Positions 30,001 through 36,000 of a DNA stretch of 38,435 nucleotides are shown one piece after another (position 1 is the stretch's first letter; each line of letters opens with the position of its first letter). The stretch is from Fibrobacteria bacterium (GTDB lineage Bacteria > Fibrobacterota > Fibrobacteria > UBA11236): the NCBI GenBank assembly GCA_041746255.1, contig JBGTHM010000089.1, positions 1-38,435 on the forward strand, in the 5' to 3' direction. A program made the position numbers.

Positions 30001-33000
30001 CGCGGACATGGGCACGGTGGGTAACTTGCGCGTATCGCCGGTTCTGAGTGGTGAGGGATATGTTTTGCCGGCAGGCTTTCCGCTGAGCAGCAGGAAATTT
30101 TCCATGAGCAGGTGGCCGTTGGGTGTTCCAATGGATTCGGGATGGAATTGTAAACCGAAGTGGGGCCGCCCCGGTGCAGCCAACCCCATGATGACGCCGT
30201 CTTCCTCGGACCAAGCGGTAACTTCGTCGCCATGCGGTTCCGGCGCGGTTACGGCCAGGGAATGGTAGCGCACCGCCGGAAAGGATTCGGGGAGTCCCTG
30301 GAATAATCCCGTTCCCCGGTGGCGTATGGCGGAAATTTTACCATGCCGGACTTGGGGCGCATGCCCTACCGCGAATCCCAATTCCAGGGCCAGCCCCTGA
30401 TGGCCGAGGCAGATACCTAGTATCGGACACTCGGGAAAAGCGGAGAAGATTTGGGAGCAAATGCCGAAGTCGTTGGTTTGGGCGGGGTGTCCGGGGCCGG
30501 GTGAAATCACGATATTATCGAAGGAAAGGGAACGAATCCCGGCCAAATCCATTTCATCGTTGCGAATCACCAAAGGCTTTACCCCGTTCAGCCGCCACAG
30601 AAGCTGGAACAGGTTATAGCTGTAGGAGTCGTAATTTTCTAGGAGCAGCGTCTGGATCATAATGGGGATGGGCGTTCAAGCCGAAATAAAGAATAACAAC
30701 AATGTCGGCCCTCCGAACTTAGCATAAATGTTAAGTTCGAGCGGAAAATTTCCGGTATTTCCCCCTTTTCGGGAATTCAGGGGGGCACCCCACTCCATGC
30801 ATGTGACCGCCATCACCCGGGCTCCCCGAACCCGCAACCCTGAAAGTATCTTTTTTCCTCAAACCAATATTGCGAATAAACCGTGCCGCTCAAAACCTAC
30901 ATCCGCCTGGCCGGAACCAACGGATTCCTTCCCGGGCCAATCGACCTTCCCGGTCGTGAGAACGCCTACCTGCTGCTGGAAGGCGCGCACGCCGTGCGCA
31001 TGTTGAGCCGCCGTAGCAACGGTTTTACCGGCACCCGCCACTTCCGCTTCCACGAACCCTTCTTCGCCTCTTTTCCTTTGGACAAAGCCTACCCCTCCTT
31101 GATGGAATGCCTGTGCCATGGCGGCACGTTGCCCGTGGTGGAAATTTCGCTGTGGGATTTGGTGGAGGGTAGCGTCGAGGAAGAGCCGAAGGAAAAGCGG
31201 GTGTTTCTCTTTACGCTTGAGAATGTGCGGCTGACGCAGGTACGGACGCGGATGCGCGAGGCGCGTTTGGACCGGATTCGCGGCGGCAAGTTGATGCAGG
31301 CGCGGGTAGGCATGGTCTATGACAAGGTGACCTGGCTGCATGACGAAGGGTATATCCTTTTCTGGGACAGTCTGAAGGATACGGGCAAGGAAGAGGCCAA
31401 GCCGGAGGAGGATTGGGACGAAGCGGAACCCGCGGCGGCGCCTGAGAAAAAGGCCGTGGAGGTGTTGTTGCAAAACCCTCTGTGGGACGTGGCGGAAGTG
31501 GGCTTCAACGAGGAGGCGACGCTGTCGGTTGACTGCGAACTGCCGGAGGAACACAAAAGCCGCAAGCGGGTGGAGTTCGTGCTTTTCGCCAAGACACCGA
31601 AGGGGCCCGAACAAATTGCCAAAGCCGACGGGTTTACCGAGAACGGACGCGCGACATGTAAGATGCCGGTGTATAAGCCGCGCTACCGTGGGGAAGACGG
31701 CGAGGCGCTTAAAGAGGTGGAATATTTTTTCACGGCCAAGCATACCCTGTCGGAGCCGGTGGATTCGGGAGCCAAGCCCGAGGGCGTGAAGTCGGTGGAT
31801 AAGATGGCGGATCCGCTGATTGATACGCATGTGGTGGCGGGCGTGACCTTCGGTTTCGATTCCAGCTTTTTGCATCCGGACCAGATTCCGAAATTAAAAG
31901 AGTTGTGCGAGAAAATCGCGGCCTGGAGGAAGAATTATCCGGACGGTAAGATGGCGTTGTTCGGGCATACGGATGCGGTGGGCAAGGAAACGTATAACAA
32001 AGGGCTGTCGGAGCGGCGGGCGCGTTCGGTGTATGCGTTTTTAATGGGCGATCCGAGCGTGTGGGAGGAATTGCATAAGGAGGAGAGTTGGAGTTTTGCC
32101 TGCACGCAGGCTTTGGTGAAACAGGCGGGTTACGACCCCGGGGCAATTGATGGGGCGGATGGGCCTAAGACGCAAGGGGCGGTGAAGGATTTTCAGGAGG
32201 CGCAGGGTCTCAAGGCCGATGGGATTGCCGGGCCGCAGACGCGGGAGGCGCTGTTCATCGAATTCATGCGGGCGGTTCCGAAAGCGCAGAAATTGGCCCT
32301 GACGCCCAAACACTTCGACAAGGTGGACGGGCAACCGCATATGGGTTGCAGCGAGTTCAATCGGGTGGAGGTGACGGAGGATAAGAGCGAGGCGAACCGG
32401 CGGGTGACGGTGGTGCTGGTGAAGTCGAGCCAGACGTTTCCGGTGGAGTATCCCTGTAAGCGCGGGAATATCGGGCCGTGCCAGGGCCAGGTGAAGAAGG
32501 CGGGAGAGCGGCGGACGAAGGGGTTTGGGTGCGCGTTTTATGATGGGTTGGTGGTTGAGAAAAAGGGCAACAATGTAAAACCCCCTATAAATCGGAAAGT
32601 GAAATTTGTTGGAATTACCGATGAGCAGGTCAAGCAGTATGTTAATCTCCCCTCAGGTAAAATAGGTAATGGAATTGAACGGTTTTTAGAAGTTGAAATT
32701 GAAGGCGCTGCCGATGGGCAGCCTGTTTTTTGGACCGTTTCAGGAAATGAAAATAATAGCAAAAGGACTGATCCTAAAACGGGAATTCGAGCATCCGAAC
32801 CCGAAGCGCTAAAACCTTTCAAAATCGAGCCACCGTTAAATGCTCCCAGAGTCGAAATGAGCACAAAGGTTAAGAATAAAAAATCTTCCATCATCCTTAG
32901 TTGTGGGGTCGCAGGAGGAGATAGCTTTATCGTAGAAGCGGGGGTATCCAAAGAGAAAATGGATGTAAAAGTTACTGTAGTTAATTGGAGAAAGCTGGAA

Positions 33001-36000
33001 TACGAAATTATTCAACCCCTTTCCAAGGGCGAACATCGCCTTACCGATTACACCGTTTTCAATGCAGATAAAACTCCCGGACTGTCTGTAAAATCGAAGG
33101 ATTATTTAAAAAAGGTTTTGGGGAATTGTTTTGTTGAATTTGACCAAGCACACGCCGACGTCTTTGGAAAAAAGGATATTCCACTTAATGGAGAGCACAA
33201 CATTTTTGATGGGAAGTATCTCAGAAAAAACCCTGGGAAGAAAATTGTGGTTCTTTCATTTGATCAAACTGAAGAAATTCTACGCAATAAAGGAAAACAT
33301 CAAAAAAACCATCGTACTGCCTCCATGGTTTGGTGCGATTATTTGGCCGATTTTATTGAGTGGGACGAATTATTTTCAGGCATAGTTGAACCAGCTGATC
33401 TACTTACCGAGCGGGTAATATTTGAAAGAGCGATTGATAATGCCTTAGGCTATCCACACGGAAGCTACTCAATATCCCAAATTCAATGGGGCGCAACTAA
33501 ATGGCAAGATGTTTCCTCAGGCATCCCAATATGGAAAGAAATTTCATCACCATCGGATCCTGGCTGGGAATTTAAAAAGGGCGGTATTCTATCAAATGAA
33601 GCAGAAATAAAAGACCATATTCAATTTAAAGATTTTCGGACAGTTGCGATTCGATTTCCGGATTCAAAACCGAATTATCCTGGTAAGATAATTGAAAAGA
33701 ATATTGGAGGCCAATTCACCGATAAAGGTGCGATAATCGGACTGACAATAAGGATCCGTGGGATAGCGTGCGAAATGGATACGAATGGTGCAGCATTAAA
33801 TGGTGATATTTGGATGAATACATTTGCAGGAGAAGCTCATGATGTAGGCATGGCTGCAGTTATTGCCCATGAGCTTGCACATAACATGGGCCAAGCCTAT
33901 GCTGATAAATCGATTGACTCCGTTTTTGGCCGACCTACGGCTAAACAGATTCCGGGAGTCCCCTTCCCAAAGGGAGTACCTGAAGGTGATATGTACGGTG
34001 GAAAAGGCCATCAGGGAACACATTGTGCCAATGGAGTAAAAAACAAAAGTGCCAAATCCTTCCATACCACAGTGGCAGCCTTAGAGCGAACGTGCATAAT
34101 GTTTGGCGCTTCAGGAATGGATGATCCAAGTGAGTATTCATTTTGTACAGATTGTACGTCGTACATTAAGGCAGAAAATATTAGTGATATTCGAAAATCT
34201 TGGAGTTCCTTATGAGCATTCGATCGATATATGGTTTTGTAGTAGCTTTAATTTTTTTTTCTTGGGGATTTAATATGAGCATTGATAAAGGCCCACTGGG
34301 ATTTTCAGGCCAGGATTATTGGAACGCTAAGAATATTTCTTTAGGAGATATTTCAGGCCCTTGGCTTTGGGATGAGATTTCAAAAATTGTTATCGACGTT
34401 CCGAGCAAAGTCGACTTAGGCGAACACTCTAGCATACCGTTAATTTGCTTAAGAACAGGATCAAAAGAAAAGTTTAGACTCTTTTCACTTAAACTCACTT
34501 CGCAATTAGTTTTGGTACATTTGGAATCAGGGACTATTATAATTGACAAGCTTACAAAGTCACCGGATAGACTAAACACCCATAAAACTTCTCCTGGCTT
34601 TATAAGTGATAGAGCTCAAGTAAATCTATTAGAAAAAATTGATCCAAGCTTGGCGATTGGAAAATTTGTCGCCAAGATAATTTGTGGACCAGAAGCCTCG
34701 AATCAACGCTTTTTTGAAATTATTCCAGAAAAAAGAAACGAAGGAATGACTGGATCCCTTTCTGCGTTAGAAACATTCCGCCAAGTAGGAGCACCCCCAA
34801 CGAATTATCACTATTTTGATTCACTAGAGATACAACAATTGCCGCTCGACACTGATGTTAAAAGAGTTTCCAAATGGATTATTTCCAAGGCCGCAACAGG
34901 AAGTTCATCGAAATTTCAGGTCCGGCTTTCCTTCAAGGTTCAAGGTCTTCCCAAATTTGTTTTTCCCCAAAAGAAAGTAATTCTTGATTCAAAGAAGCGA
35001 AAGATTTATGGATACATTCCGATTAGTTTCATTGGATTTGATGAGGATAGGCAGTTGGTTGTCCAGCAGTCGCTTGATATGCCGATTTTTATTAAACCTG
35101 AGGGCGAGTCCGATTCGCCTTGGTTATCGGGACACGTAATAATGGATGTATCCGCAATGCTACCGGCTGCTGGAAAAATGTCCGCACTTTCACTTTGGGT
35201 GTTTAGTATGGACCAGAGTGGAATGCTTGAATTTGAAATATTGAAGTAAATCATGATCTGTACCTCGTTTGACAAAGTCGCATTGGGACGCAAAGCCGTA
35301 AGTGGTCCATGGGGCGGAGATGGCGGCACCGTTCCCCACAACCTGATTGTCATTGATTACAACAATACCATCCACACAATGTGCGTCTTTCATGAACTGG
35401 GCCATATCATGAATCCGCGCAAAGGTTCTTTCTGATATTCGGAATCTTGGCCATGAGGAAACCTTATGAGGAATTTTTGTATTCATGGGTTGATTGTATT
35501 TTTTGTTGGAGATACGATAACTATGGCAAATGAAATCTGACCCTTGAATCTTTCCGGAGACCAATATTGGAATATGCCGCTTAGTCATACGGGTGACATC
35601 GGAATGGATAGGTTGGGAGAGATCGATGGTATGCTATTGGACGCCCCTCCCCGGATTTTCCTGGACCGACATTCCACAATTCCATTGATCGCACTTAGAA
35701 CTTCCCCGAAGTTCAAAGCGCAGAATTCATCGTTGGCAAAAACTGCACAGTTAACGATTGTTCATTTGGAAACCGGGATTACTCAAGTGGTAAAATTCCA
35801 AAAGAGCCCCGACATTGAAGATCCCAATCCACCCTCTCCCGGCTGGATAAATGAATGGGTGGAGGAGGAACTGAAATCTTTTGTCAACCTTGGCCCGGAA
35901 ATCGGAAAATACCTTTTAAGGCTTCTTGATGGACCTGAAGCATCGAATTCCAGGGTGATTCAGATTTTTCCCGAACCGAATTCAGAAAATAGCCAAGAGA

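Follow-up and report, generated by a model that had tools for sequence, protein, structure and literature searches.

What is the function of four related genes that join a secretion-tube protein, a cell-wall-binding module and swappable, toxin-like ends in single open reading frames? The question is raised by a gene in the 38,435-nt window analyzed here (contig C89), which comes from a member of the Fibrobacterota, a little-studied phylum. We consider it likely that the four products are specialized-Hcp polymorphic effectors of a type VI secretion system (T6SS) that act in the periplasm and have cognate immunity proteins. A first-pass annotation had already proposed polymorphic T6SS toxins accompanied by immunity genes, and this proposal is strengthened by cassette linkage, signal peptides and a complex model, although two of its elements, that the fusion occurs only here and in one fragment and that the tails fold poorly, had to be abandoned. 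New to the present analysis are a confident tail fold, a partner protein with a signal peptide and modelled binding, and relatives that carry a short motif without Hcp.

The C89 gene (30883..34215; all features described here for which strand matters are on the plus strand) encodes a protein of 1110 aa, predicted to have neither a signal peptide nor a transmembrane segment, and starts with GTG at a position where the paralog on C125 and the copy in the congeneric genome G019 have ATG. Both reading frames called earlier (30883-34215, 1110 aa, and 34200-35249) were recovered. Over about 560-578 aa, the C89 protein shares 93% identity with the paralog at C123:9437 (904 aa), 87% with that at C80:9815 (651 aa, minus strand) and 84% with that at C125:82100 (635 aa). 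That the four share an N-terminal part of ~560 aa and then diverge completely was borne out: the similarity of all four ends directly after GFGCAFYDGLVVE (residues 547-559; ...FYDGLVVE), and the nucleotide identity of the paralogs with the C89 copy falls from 0.69-0.94, in 100-nt windows as far as alignment column 1700, to 0.27-0.47 beyond it. Also in agreement with the annotation, which had reported low-GC downstream ORFs, GC content drops from the Cys-rich junction of the C89 gene onward, being 0.592 in 30883-32562 vs. 0.413 in the tail, 0.389 in the next gene and 0.403 from there to the contig end (genome-wide 0.531).

The protein opens with an Hcp (TssD) domain (30883..31377, residues 1-165), as reported earlier for all four paralogs, and the Pfam model T6SS_HCP exceeds its cut-off of 23.5 bits in 4/4 copies by a margin of 2.5-8 bits (26.0-27.0 bits for the proteins, 29.9-31.3 bits in a genome search). 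In the C89 protein this match covers residues 7-153 and model positions 2-129 of 129 at 26.0 bits. Alignment of the fused Hcp with free Hcps of the family by hhalign gave a probability of 97.9% (E 3.2e-13, 154 columns), the conservation shared by fused and free Hcps spans the full length of the domain, and a search of PDB sequences with the Hcp profile identified 4hkh (E 6.5e-8), 6a2v (1.4e-5), and 5mxn (2e-4). The fused domain is very divergent, which counts against its acting as a tube-borne effector: it sits on a branch of length 2.1 in the Hcp tree, its NCBIfam TssD score of 35.2 bits is below the cut-off of 58.9, and AF2 left residues 1-182 unfolded (pLDDT 27-47).

An acidic, Pro-rich linker of low pLDDT (31378..31449, residues 166-189), akin to that found 3' of the short N-terminal motif in Hcp-less relatives, leads into a macroglobulin/Ig-like beta-sandwich (31450..31812, residues about 190-310; AF2 pLDDT over 90) with W201 and VGFNE 206-210 invariant in 39 sequences. 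This domain occurs in 13 of the 201 sampled Fibrobacterota genomes, every one of them in the same family (f1), and by VIA-align it resembles the N-terminal domain of BtaeB (9jdh_A, Z 11.0, rmsd 2.8, 109 aligned) and alpha-2-macroglobulin (4u48, Z 9.2). It is followed by an OmpA-like peptidoglycan-binding domain (31813..32427, residues about 311-515). The OmpA-like and PG_binding_1 core described in the first-pass annotation is present as judged by Pfam (OmpA 322-388, PG_binding_1 411-457), but PG_binding_1 (nt 32080-32262, residues about 400-460) sits inside the OmpA-like fold, as the VIA-align match to the PG-binding domain of TagL (5m38_A, Z 11.8) spans model residues 314-514 and structural matches of the PG_binding_1 type (5anz, 6tci, 5nm7) cover 394-462. 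The shared portion closes with the Cys-rich junction (32428..32562, residues 516-560) ending in GFGCAFYDGLVVE; C489, C525, C533, C550, F552, Y553, D554, L556, and E559 are invariant in 39 sequences.

The tail of the C89 protein is shown by modeling as an Ig-like domain followed by a predicted zinc protease of metzincin-like type. The AF2 model computed with an alignment has a pLDDT of 96.2 and a pTM of 0.92, contrary to the earlier remark on poor folding. Domain A (32563..32988, residues 561-702; pLDDT over 90) is an Ig-like/macroglobulin-like beta-sandwich that is common to many tails of other types and is matched in VIA-align by the N-terminal domain of PorA (6kjk, Z 9.5) and by complement MG4 and intimin/invasin domains (Z about 8). 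No Pfam family, peptidase families included, attains its cut-off in domain B/C (32989..34212, residues 703-1110). The VIA-align matches of this domain are adamalysin II (1dth, Z 11.4, rmsd 3.8, 178 aligned), ADAM22 (11.1), ADAM10 (10.9), ADAM8 (10.8), archaemetzincin (10.0), and ulilysin (9.6), and its nearest ESM Atlas cluster is designated "reprolysin-like metallopeptidase" (score 0.94). Its landmarks are HELAH at 996-1000 (nt 33868-33882), G1003, H1043, H1047, and CIMFG at 1071-1075; the HExxH that had been described as invariant is so in 71/71 aligned tail homologues, in which H, E, H, G, H, C, C, and C are invariant. Like metzincins, the tail has HExxHxxG, a downstream His and a CIM Met-turn-like motif, whereas the position of the canonical third zinc ligand is occupied by Tyr1006, which counts against the assignment.

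The earlier designation of the tails as polymorphic holds insofar as they are unrelated after the junction; those of C80 and C125 (about 80-93 aa), however, have no recognizable toxin domain. Five Hcp-less relatives have tails with 50-61% identity to that of C123, and the two ORFs 3' of the C123 tail recur behind the putative toxin of one related locus (L022). Tails of other relatives include the T6SS lipase family PF09994 (Tle1-like; L024) and DUF3289 with LysM (L027). The same cassettes also stand behind Hcp-less carriers in related genera, and comparison of the loci shows that low-GC cassettes of tail and putative immunity gene are swapped at the ...FYDxLVxE junction, giving rise to diversity.

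The next gene, P0002 (34212..35249, 345 aa), is our candidate for the immunity gene. The downstream ORF had been called from 34200, and although the frame is present its likely start is the ATG at 34212, which overlaps the stop of the putative toxin gene as ATGA. The protein has an N-terminal signal or anchor sequence and no match in Pfam or NCBIfam, and signal peptides or lipoboxes are found in 7/7 of the full-length homologues aligned. Homologues are present in 10 of 201 Fibrobacterota genomes. In seven of the 13 foreign loci examined the homologue lies directly 3' of a tail B/C homologue, in pairings that are 26-61% identical and span three Fibrobacterota families; in the other six, whose flanks comprise only 1.5 kb, a neighboring tail was not seen. 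A complex model of P0002 with the protease domain scored 0.79 (best of three controls, 0.00), a value attained by 116/157 solved complexes and 2/215 mismatched pairs, counts that hold only roughly here because our own alignments were used. At least 90% of contacts agree between runs, partner pLDDT is at least 75, and the modelled interface involves tail residues 480, 482-484 (beside H483/H487) and 516-519 (beside CIMFG). This model favors an interaction between P0002 and the protease domain. A decayed second copy of the candidate immunity gene (35466..36188) has a signal-peptide-like start, an in-frame TGA at 35538-35540 and, after it, 160 aa that are 38% identical to the first copy (E 1.4e-30); the match to the immunity family contains one TGA. 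Its C-terminus is unrelated to the first copy and contains a hydrophobic segment.

The genome encodes a T6SS, as the annotation had noted, with genes for TssK, L, M, A, B, and C on C62, a single free Hcp together with TssE, F, and G on C26, VgrG on C97, and ClpV on C66; PAAR_motif had no match in the genome. That the effector loci do not adjoin T6SS genes counts against their assignment to this system, and that a homologue of the amidase effector Tae4 adjoins the C80 paralog counts for it. Of the family's 32 genomes, 20 carry the core family, and 20/20 of these have TssC; the 12 genomes without the core family are a single genus, with TssC in 2/12, and the co-occurrence is weak because it rests on essentially one phylogenetic split. 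Relatives within the same family have a short N-terminal motif where Hcp would stand. The Hcp fusion had been thought confined to this genome and one fragment, but three Hcp-fused copies (79-80% identity) are present in another species of the genus, and in other Fibrobacterota families ten more long ORFs (374-1037 aa), distinct in sequence, open with an Hcp domain, which one of them combines with OmpA, with PG_binding_1 and with a related tail.

From these data we would envisage the following mechanism. The sequence shows a full-length Hcp that begins, without a signal peptide, at residue 1 and heads a carrier common to the four paralogs, which is ordered as linker, beta-sandwich, OmpA-like domain with nested PG_binding_1, and conserved Cys-rich junction. 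The fused Hcp would join the T6SS tube with free Hcp, probably as one fused subunit per ring, and its extension would be threaded through neighboring rings or travel on the outside of the ring. On contraction, the effector would reach the periplasm of a neighbor, where the OmpA-like/PG_binding_1 module, given its domain identity, may anchor it on the target's peptidoglycan and the protease of the C89 tail would cut a substrate in the envelope or periplasm. The next gene, which is translationally coupled, linked in the genome and modelled as binding, would supply a periplasmic immunity protein against the protease domain, with the decayed second copy after it. In this scheme secretion and ring assembly, like toxicity and protection, are presumptive steps.

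The size of the extension is a difficulty for this scheme, as neither about 945 aa nor the protease domain alone (about 408 aa) is easily accommodated in an Hcp lumen, given as about 45 A in PMC13323088. The proteins could instead be T6SS effectors in which the Hcp-like domain is a built-in chaperone or docking piece for an Hcp ring or the VgrG base, so that a large extension, far exceeding one lumen, would be carried alongside the tube or on its tip. Such an arrangement would accord with the divergence of the Hcp and with the likeness of the beta-sandwich, which is retained in relatives without Hcp, to the N-terminal domain of BtaeB (9jdh; also 9jg8_C, Z 10.3), a domain that sits in a cargo complex on the VgrG spike. 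We think it rather unlikely, as the Hcp match extends over the whole domain, conserved residues are shared with free Hcps along its length, and the beta-sandwich match exceeds generic ones of the Ig-like or MG-like kind by only about 2 Z. Loss of function is very improbable, even for the short-tailed C80 and C125 copies, whose 80-93-aa tails resemble a lone beta-sandwich piece: despite the in-frame TGA in the second immunity copy, each of the four carriers still has an open frame (635-1110 aa), the invariant residues of the core and the conserved stretch upstream, and the C89 and C123 tails are complete and have close full-length relatives elsewhere.

Two further explanations dispense with T6SS delivery. 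OmpA and PG_binding_1 domains are typical of resident envelope proteins, and structurally the OmpA-like domain is matched best by the peptidoglycan-binding domain of TagL from the EAEC T6SS, so that the four could be peptidoglycan-binding proteins of the producer itself, such as TagL-like T6SS anchors or wall-remodeling enzymes, with ordinary partners downstream. Many other OmpA-like domains lie within 1 Z of the TagL match, however, and the absence of a signal peptide or transmembrane segment from the 1110-aa protein when its downstream partner has a signal peptide, the unrelated tails, the low-GC cassettes and the Tle1-like lipase among tails elsewhere make this highly unlikely. We attach an equally small probability to export by another route (an extracellular contractile injection system, vesicles or lysis), with Hcp a relic of a tail-tube-like loading module. 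A faint Pfam eCIS_core match near HExxH points this way but is non-significant (E 0.13, 12.9 bits, cut-off 22); tail homologues elsewhere are mostly 700-850 aa with an unannotated N-terminus (39 of 55 scanned without a Pfam family), and the lack of a PAAR_motif match would also fit. Against it stand the matches of the N-terminal domain to Hcp structures from T6SSs and to the Hcps of the family's T6SS clusters, as well as the presence of a T6SS in every genome with the core family.

Upstream of the gene, alignment of the four paralogs reveals a common stretch with two short elements. The 24-bp palindrome GAACTTAGCATAAATGTTAAGTTC (30715..30738) belongs to a pattern with 15 sites genome-wide, four of them upstream of the four paralogs and all intergenic except C80:6488, which falls within a questionable ORF call of 74 aa, and it is probably a generic repeated hairpin. 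The motif GTGACCGCCATCAC (30803..30816, plus strand) lies about 70-80 nt 5' of the start codon; its pattern GTGAC[CG][AG]CC[AG]TCAC has four matches in the genome, all upstream of the four paralogs, and the core of this putative element is also kept in the congeneric genome.

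Up to position ~30660 the window holds housekeeping genes, among them those for PNPase, a bioA-like aminotransferase and a pabB-like fusion, and these are followed by the gene at 30883-34215 (plus strand), which encodes a protein of 1110 residues. The genome as a whole (4.59 Mb) has a GC content of 53.1%; the GC fraction is 0.592 over codons 1-560 of this gene, 0.413 over the rest of it, and ~0.39-0.40 from there to the contig end. Three paralogs reside on contigs C123 (from position 9437, 904 residues), C80 (from 9815, minus strand, 651 residues) and C125 (from 82100, 635 residues), and over the first 560-578 residues they are 93, 87, and 84% identical, respectively, to the copy in the window (contig C89). 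All four copies diverge completely after the sequence GFGCAFYDGLVVE (residues 547-559), and at the DNA level the identity to the C89 copy, calculated per 100 nt, is 0.69-0.94 up to alignment column 1700 and 0.27-0.47 beyond it. The first-pass annotation had described four paralogs with a common N-terminal part of ~560 residues and unrelated tails, and because of the identity among the paralogs, their shared point of divergence and the fall in DNA identity, we consider that observation to be real. Its proposal of a polymorphic-toxin layout is likewise borne out, as a conserved N-terminal part, a sharp junction, and unrelated tails are found among both paralogs and orthologs. A search of the genome for orphan fragments of the junction was negative.

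The 344-residue tail of the C123 copy shares 50-61% identity with those of five relatives that lack Hcp; full-length relatives exist, but the tail carries no activity assignment. No toxin domain was found in the tails of the C80 and C125 copies, and these short-tailed paralogs may be relics or may be carriers of separately encoded downstream proteins. On C125 an ORF of 423 residues with no Pfam match (5010-6281 of locus L068, C125:79000-90000) starts 2 nt past the paralog stop in another frame, with a multi-pass membrane ORF and then a signal-peptide ORF behind it; all three are of low GC. The 423-residue ORF could represent separately encoded cargo or one part of a split gene.

The annotation of a full-length N-terminal Hcp (TssD) domain held, if by a small margin: the Pfam family T6SS_HCP (PF05638) scored above its cut-off in all four copies, from model position 1 or 2 to 129 of 129 (C89 copy: residues 7-153, model positions 2-129, 26.0 bits against a cut-off of 23.5). 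The NCBIfam TssD model TIGR03344 scored below its cut-off (35.2 against 58.9). When a profile of the fused domain was compared by hhalign with eight free Hcps, the genes of which adjoin TssC or TssE genes in related genomes, the two aligned over 154 columns with a probability of 97.9% (E 3.2e-13), and the same profile searched against PDB sequences matched EAEC Hcp1 (4hkh, E 6.5e-8), 6a2v (E 1.4e-5) and the Vibrio cholerae Hcp (5mxn, E 2e-4). The start codon of the fused gene falls at the same point as the start of the free Hcps. The fused domain has a very long branch in the Hcp tree, and in an AlphaFold2 model of residues 1-565 (54 alignment rows, 13 of them covering Hcp) residues 1-182 were predicted at a pLDDT of 27-47. 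We accept that the N-terminal domain is homologous to Hcp.

Between Hcp and the tail lie ~395 residues of conserved non-toxin modules, namely a beta-sandwich, an OmpA-like domain with PG_binding_1, and a Cys-rich junction; AlphaFold2 predicted residues 190-560 at a pLDDT >90. A Foldseek search of the N-terminal model against the PDB gave generic Ig or OmpA matches only. By VIA-align, the top non-OmpA match of the beta-sandwich (residues 191-308) was the N-terminal domain of BtaeB (9jdh, Z 11.0), and the sandwich matched 9jg8_C, from a cargo complex on VgrG, at Z 10.3 and generic macroglobulin/Ig domains at Z 8.5-9.2. BtaeB, going by the entries 9jdh and 9jg8 and the context given in PMC13699834, belongs to a cargo complex, BtpeA-BtaeB-BtapC, that sits on the VgrG spike of Bacteroides fragilis, and its N-terminal domain is from the delivery part of a T6SS effector. 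With an identity of 10% and generic MG/Ig domains close behind, this likeness is a lead to possible homology. The following domain (residues 314-514) has an OmpA-like fold, matching the peptidoglycan-binding domain of TagL (5m38) at Z 11.8, tied with those of Pal, MotB, and OprF (Z 10.4-11.2). Its Pfam matches are OmpA (PF00691, residues 322-388, 36.4 bits against 27.2) and PG_binding_1 (PF01471, residues 411-457, 55.6 against 23), the PG_binding_1 helices (~394-462) being nested inside the OmpA-like domain. At the junction, four cysteines and the motif FYDxLVxE are invariant in 39 family members.

Seventy homologues of the carrier were retrieved from 5.8 billion clusters, and PF05638 was present in three of them only, all from this genome. 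The homologues without Hcp align from query residue ~159-196 onward and start instead with a conserved MNLDPF..DPF..IF.K..GGGxGR sequence (~35-50 residues) followed by an acidic Pro-rich linker; no signal peptide was found in these MNLDPF-type relatives. An insensitive search with the 43-residue N-terminal motif gave 12 matches, mostly core-family genes or short ORFs with the beta-sandwich. The hosts are Fibrobacteria/Fibrobacterota MAGs, in which the relatives are often multicopy (10 loci in one MAG and 14 matches in another, G001), located among housekeeping genes and each followed by one or two ORFs without a Pfam match. Ten loci with 110 ORFs in total were inspected and contained no T6SS core gene. 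Annotated tails of the relatives include a Tle1-like lipase (PF09994, locus L024) and DUF3289 with LysM (locus L027), with PF07217 and PF09374 found in precomputed annotations. The core (beta-sandwich, OmpA/PG_binding_1, and Cys-rich junction) occurs in 20 of 32 genomes of the taxonomic family, all 20 of which have TssC, whereas the 12 genomes without the core belong to one genus and have TssC in two cases. This co-occurrence is consistent with dependence on the T6SS, but it amounts to one phylogenetic contrast. In a sample of 201 genomes of the phylum, TssC was found in 87 and the characteristic beta-sandwich in 13, all of family f1. The unpublished genome G008, one of the 32, was counted in the family and phylum tallies; the alignments and models were built from the other genomes.

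The tail of the C89 copy (residues 561-1110; tail numbers are protein residues minus 560) gave nothing significant in sequence searches of Pfam and the PDB, its score to the Pfam Reprolysin family (PF01421) being 14.1 bits against a cut-off of 20.8 (E 0.048). Contrary to the earlier remark that the tails fold poorly, AlphaFold2 modeled this one from a 71-row alignment at a pLDDT of 96.2 and a pTM of 0.92. No PDB entry was clearly matched by Foldseek (TM ≤0.16), whereas an exhaustive VIA-align search of the same model was informative. Tail residues 10-142 form an Ig-like/MG-like sandwich (PorA N-domain, Z 9.5), and tail residues ~115-543 have a metzincin fold, matching adamalysin II (1dth) at Z 11.4 with an rmsd of 3.8 over 178 aligned residues, followed by ADAM22 (Z 11.1), ADAM10 (10.9), ADAM8 (10.8), TACE (10.5), archaemetzincin (10.0), and ulilysin (9.6). 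The best 14 rows for the catalytic domain were all metzincins. The invariant HExxH reported previously was recovered as H996, E997, and H1000, invariant in 71 sequences, as are G1045, H1047, C1048, C1071, and C1091, with G1003 near-invariant. Within HELAHNMGQAY, the canonical position of the third zinc ligand, six residues past the second histidine, is occupied by Tyr1006, so that the sequence departs from HExxHxxGxx(H/D), and the role of third ligand may be taken by the invariant H1047 or the near-invariant H1043, ~45 residues downstream. At CIMFG (1071-1075), conservation across 15 sequences is complete for C1071 and G1075 and at least 90% for M1073. CIM is the Met-turn of adamalysins, which CIMFG resembles.

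The tail shares with the adamalysin/reprolysin metzincins (1dth, 3g5c, 8esv, 4dd8, and 2i47), archaemetzincin, and ulilysin the fold (Z 9.6-11.4) and HExxHxxG, and has a conserved C-I-M stretch, but differs from them in having only 11-15% identity and a tyrosine at the third-ligand position; as only ~178 of ~410 residues align, it must contain large insertions relative to them. In the ESM Atlas, the nearest cluster bears the name "reprolysin-like metallopeptidase" (score 0.94), which we treat as a lead only. We file the tail as metzincin-like and not as a member of M12B.

This family is widespread, with 285 cluster representatives at E ≤0.001 and 45 at ≤1e-30. Most homologues (among P0076-P0221) are 700-850 residues long and carry the tail at the C-terminus, with an unannotated N-terminus that starts like MPxxVFEESKLxLxA. 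In these proteins one or two Ig-like/prealbumin-like domains precede the Ig-plus-metzincin tail, and a few other homologues have an M23 or M15 peptidase domain at the N-terminus instead. Pfam scans covered 55 of the 148 listed homologues; 39 of the 55 had no Pfam family at all and none reached the curated cut-off of a peptidase family, the best score being 20.7 for Reprolysin_3 against a cut-off of 22.4. A locus search with a 15-row alignment of the tail, for which the generic HELGHNMG was the sole usable pattern, returned two loci, both in Planctomycetota MAGs.

Directly downstream of the fused gene, a gene with a likely start at ATG 34212, overlapping the toxin TGA as ATGA, extends to 35249 and encodes a protein of 345 residues with a hydrophobic N-terminus (P0002). 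A word-based search with this protein found only itself, but a six-frame search of 201 sampled Fibrobacterota genomes detected homologues in 10, belonging to three families. Thirteen foreign loci were retrieved with 1.5-kb flanks, and in seven of them a homologue of the protease part of the tail (residues 703-1110) ends just upstream of the P0002 homologue on the same strand; locus L035 is the same place as L079 and has the same arrangement. A signal peptide or lipobox is present in all seven full-length P0002 homologues that were aligned. A model of the complex between tail residues 140-550 and residues 24-345 of P0002 scored 0.79, compared with 0.00 for the best of three controls, a mark that 116 of 157 solved complexes attained, as did 2 of 215 mismatched pairs; these counts apply only roughly here because our own alignments were used. 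The complex runs agreed in at least 90% of contacts with a partner pLDDT of at least 75, and placed contacts at, among others, tail residues 480 and 482-484 (beside H483/H487), 404-409, and 516-519 (beside CIMFG). The model supports binding of the P0002 product to the protease domain, and, together with the gene order, it leads us to infer that the adjacent gene is the cognate immunity gene, the product of which would confer protection. The tail represents an unannotated metzincin-like family, accompanied by a candidate family of inhibitor-type immunity proteins.

A second immunity-like ORF, at 35544-36188, shares 38% identity with the first across 160 residues. Before it stands a signal-peptide-like start that an in-frame TGA interrupts, and its end encodes an unrelated hydrophobic C-terminus, features from which we read it as a decayed orphan immunity copy. 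Such orphan modules occur elsewhere too, and tail and immunity gene travel together as a cassette. The first two ORFs downstream of the C123 paralog recur after the toxin of another locus (L022), and in genome G094 one locus (L091, C43:6000-19422) contains an array of a 1037-residue toxin, a lipoprotein, an orphan tail end, a P0002-like protein, an IS transposase, a lipoprotein, and a further P0002-like protein, with the orphan tail end being a 117-residue metzincin C-terminal fragment that is 61% identical to the corresponding part in the window. Past the immunity genes of the window, the low-GC island contains tandem DUF2188 genes (36741-36977, E 1e-17; 37058-37345, E 4e-19) and then two ORFs of no clear family (37342-37740 and 37760-38200, with a weak Big_14 match), and it reaches the contig end.

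The Hcp fusion had been thought confined to this genome and one other fragment, and a search with the 170-residue Hcp part found no longer proteins other than those of this genome; the wider comparison overturned that view. In G019, a second species of the genus, there are three copies at 79-80% identity, two of which continue in frame into the core, to apparent contig ends. Copies in the two genomes of this genus never start with the short motif, and those in other genera never start with Hcp. In G094 (family f14), the 1037-residue protein starts MALPVYIQFKV..., its N-terminal 159 residues are similar to 4hkh (E 4.2e-6), and it also matches the free-Hcp profile (95.6%); the Hcp part is followed by OmpA, PG_binding_1, a homologue of tail residues 561-702, and a distant homologue of the HExxH tail. 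Nine further long ORFs that begin with Hcp (374-807 residues; free-Hcp HMM E 3e-16 to 1e-10) were found in families f14 and f16, with the Pfam Hcp family above its cut-off in five of the eight scanned. Given the G019, G094, and f14/f16 cases, the Hcp fusion is a recurrent theme in the phylum and not a singleton; the combination of Hcp with this particular carrier is specific to the genus among the genomes searched. Two features are common to the fused Hcps of f14/f16 and of the window and are absent from free Hcps, xPGPI near residue 17 and EGY near the end. In the tree, the fused Hcps of the genus form a long branch among free Hcps, and uniting all fused Hcps costs 0.71 lnL (p-AU 0.43), a result compatible with either one or two origins. 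Three of the nine further ORFs (loci L095, L096, and L109, in G082 and G084) encode Hcp-fused proteins of 670-807 residues with Amidohydro_2 (PF04909) C-terminal regions, another kind of specialized Hcp.

The T6SS genes that the first-pass annotation had placed on four contigs were confirmed: TssK, L, M, A, B, and C at the end of contig C62, Hcp and TssE, F, and G on C26, VgrG on C97, and ClpV on C66. One VgrG was found alongside one free and four fused Hcps, and no match to PAAR_motif (PF05488) was detected in the genome, DUF4150 not having been searched for; from this we infer that effectors may be carried mainly by Hcp in this genome. A homologue of the amidase effector Tae4 (PF14113, E 8e-20) is encoded on the plus strand of C80 (4740-5192 of locus L067, C80:2000-12000), convergent to the C80 paralog, and between the two lies a WG-repeat lipoprotein gene (5154-5834, minus strand) that could provide immunity to either.

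A specialized Hcp effector is, in our view, the most likely mechanism, and export is predicted. The fused Hcp would be built into a ring together with free Hcp, the T6SS would fire the fused effector into a neighboring cell, the OmpA-like plus PG_binding_1 module would hold it on the target cell wall, and the metzincin-like domain would cleave an envelope substrate, while the periplasmic product of 34212-35249 would protect kin cells. A T6SS anchor of the TagL type was considered, as the closest match of the OmpA-like domain is to TagL (5m38), and was rejected: the peptidoglycan-binding fold is all that is alike, the 1110-residue protein has no hydrophobic membrane anchor, and its toxin tails are variable. 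As to how a specialized Hcp of this length would be loaded, the discussion in PMC13323088 argues that at most one extended Hcp is accommodated per ring and that cargo of several domains can be enclosed by rings in a stack, and the lumen is given there as ~45 Å. The five-domain chain could follow this stacked-ring logic, though a protease domain of 408 residues is large for such a lumen, which is the main weak point of the mechanism. We regard as a rather improbable possibility a natural switch between two T6SS loading modes of one chassis, by a short motif in most genera of the family and by a whole Hcp in this genus. If the short motif is an as yet undescribed signal by which cargo docks to Hcp (or the spike), then this genus converted cargo effectors into specialized ones, and the paired forms would provide a handle on how Hcp recognizes large multi-domain cargo and how an extension of ~945 residues is carried. 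The same cassettes follow an Hcp carrier in one genus and a short-motif carrier in its sister genera, a ready comparison for effector loading.

Among the closest known systems are the Hcp-ET proteins of Enterobacteriaceae (Ma et al., 2017), which, as summarized in PMC6099711 and PMC11148199, have five toxin clans joined directly to Hcp, including a Tle1/DUF2235 clan. The fused proteins resemble them, on those summaries, in an N-terminal Hcp fused to a C-terminal toxin, an immunity gene downstream, varied toxins on one carrier, and a Tle1-like tail within the carrier family, and the C89 copy has the toxin-bearing C-terminal extension that defines the group, in the form of its metzincin-like HExxH domain. 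They differ in the Fibrobacterota host, the ~395 interposed residues, the ~945-residue extension, and the metzincin-like tail. The large survey in PMC11148199 characterizes its genomes as "virtually all" Proteobacteria. VgrG2b/PA0261 of Pseudomonas aeruginosa, going by its description in PMC6899460, likewise joins a periplasm-acting zinc metallopeptidase to a secreted T6SS structural protein with cognate immunity, but there the carrier is VgrG and the immunity families have no detected relation; the VgrG2b structure was absent from the best 50 VIA-align rows for the tail. The polymorphic toxins surveyed by Zhang et al. (2012; PMC3482391), in the sections bearing on domain architecture, share a conserved trafficking N-terminus, a sharp junction, unrelated toxins, linked immunity genes, and orphan cassettes. 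Those sections list HExxH "Tox-MPTase" toxins, place PGB1, LysM, and OmpA domains within toxin polypeptides, and name Hcp1 among T6SS N-terminal domains, but they describe no carrier of Hcp, OmpA, and PG_binding_1, and there OmpA is a C-terminal putative toxin of PVC-delivered proteins, whereas here it is an internal module. What is new here is the phylum, the long internal peptidoglycan-binding chassis, the unannotated metzincin-like tail with its candidate immunity family, and the exchange of Hcp for a short motif. Set against the literature cited, specialized Hcp effectors, described mainly in Enterobacteriaceae, extend to Fibrobacterota in at least two sequence-distinct groups and with extensions of up to ~945 residues, a length that bears on the question raised in PMC13323088 of how the Hcp tube carries large cargo. 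The internal peptidoglycan-binding module suggests a general means of retaining periplasm-acting toxins at the target cell wall.

A scan for promoters and terminators was not above chance (12 promoter-like sites, 13.8 expected). A 24-bp palindrome, GAACTTAnCATnnATGnTAAGTTC, is located at 30715-30738 in the window and at 14 other sites in the genome. C80:6488, within a doubtful 74-residue ORF call, is the only one of the 15 that is not intergenic. Each of the four paralogs has a copy upstream; another precedes the Tae4 gene on C80, and one follows the C123 cassette. The palindrome upstream of the paralogs was considered as a T6SS operator. This was rejected, as nine of the 15 sites are off the paralog contigs and separate unrelated genes, in many cases at the end of a gene, and the palindrome is probably a repeated hairpin element. 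A second sequence, GTGAC[CG][AG]CC[AG]TCAC, occurs at only four sites in the genome, one ahead of each of the four paralogs at a distance of ~70-95 nt (30803-30816 in the window, C123:9357, C80:9881 on the minus strand, and C125:82004), and its core is conserved upstream of a copy in G019, making it a candidate regulatory site specific to the paralogs.
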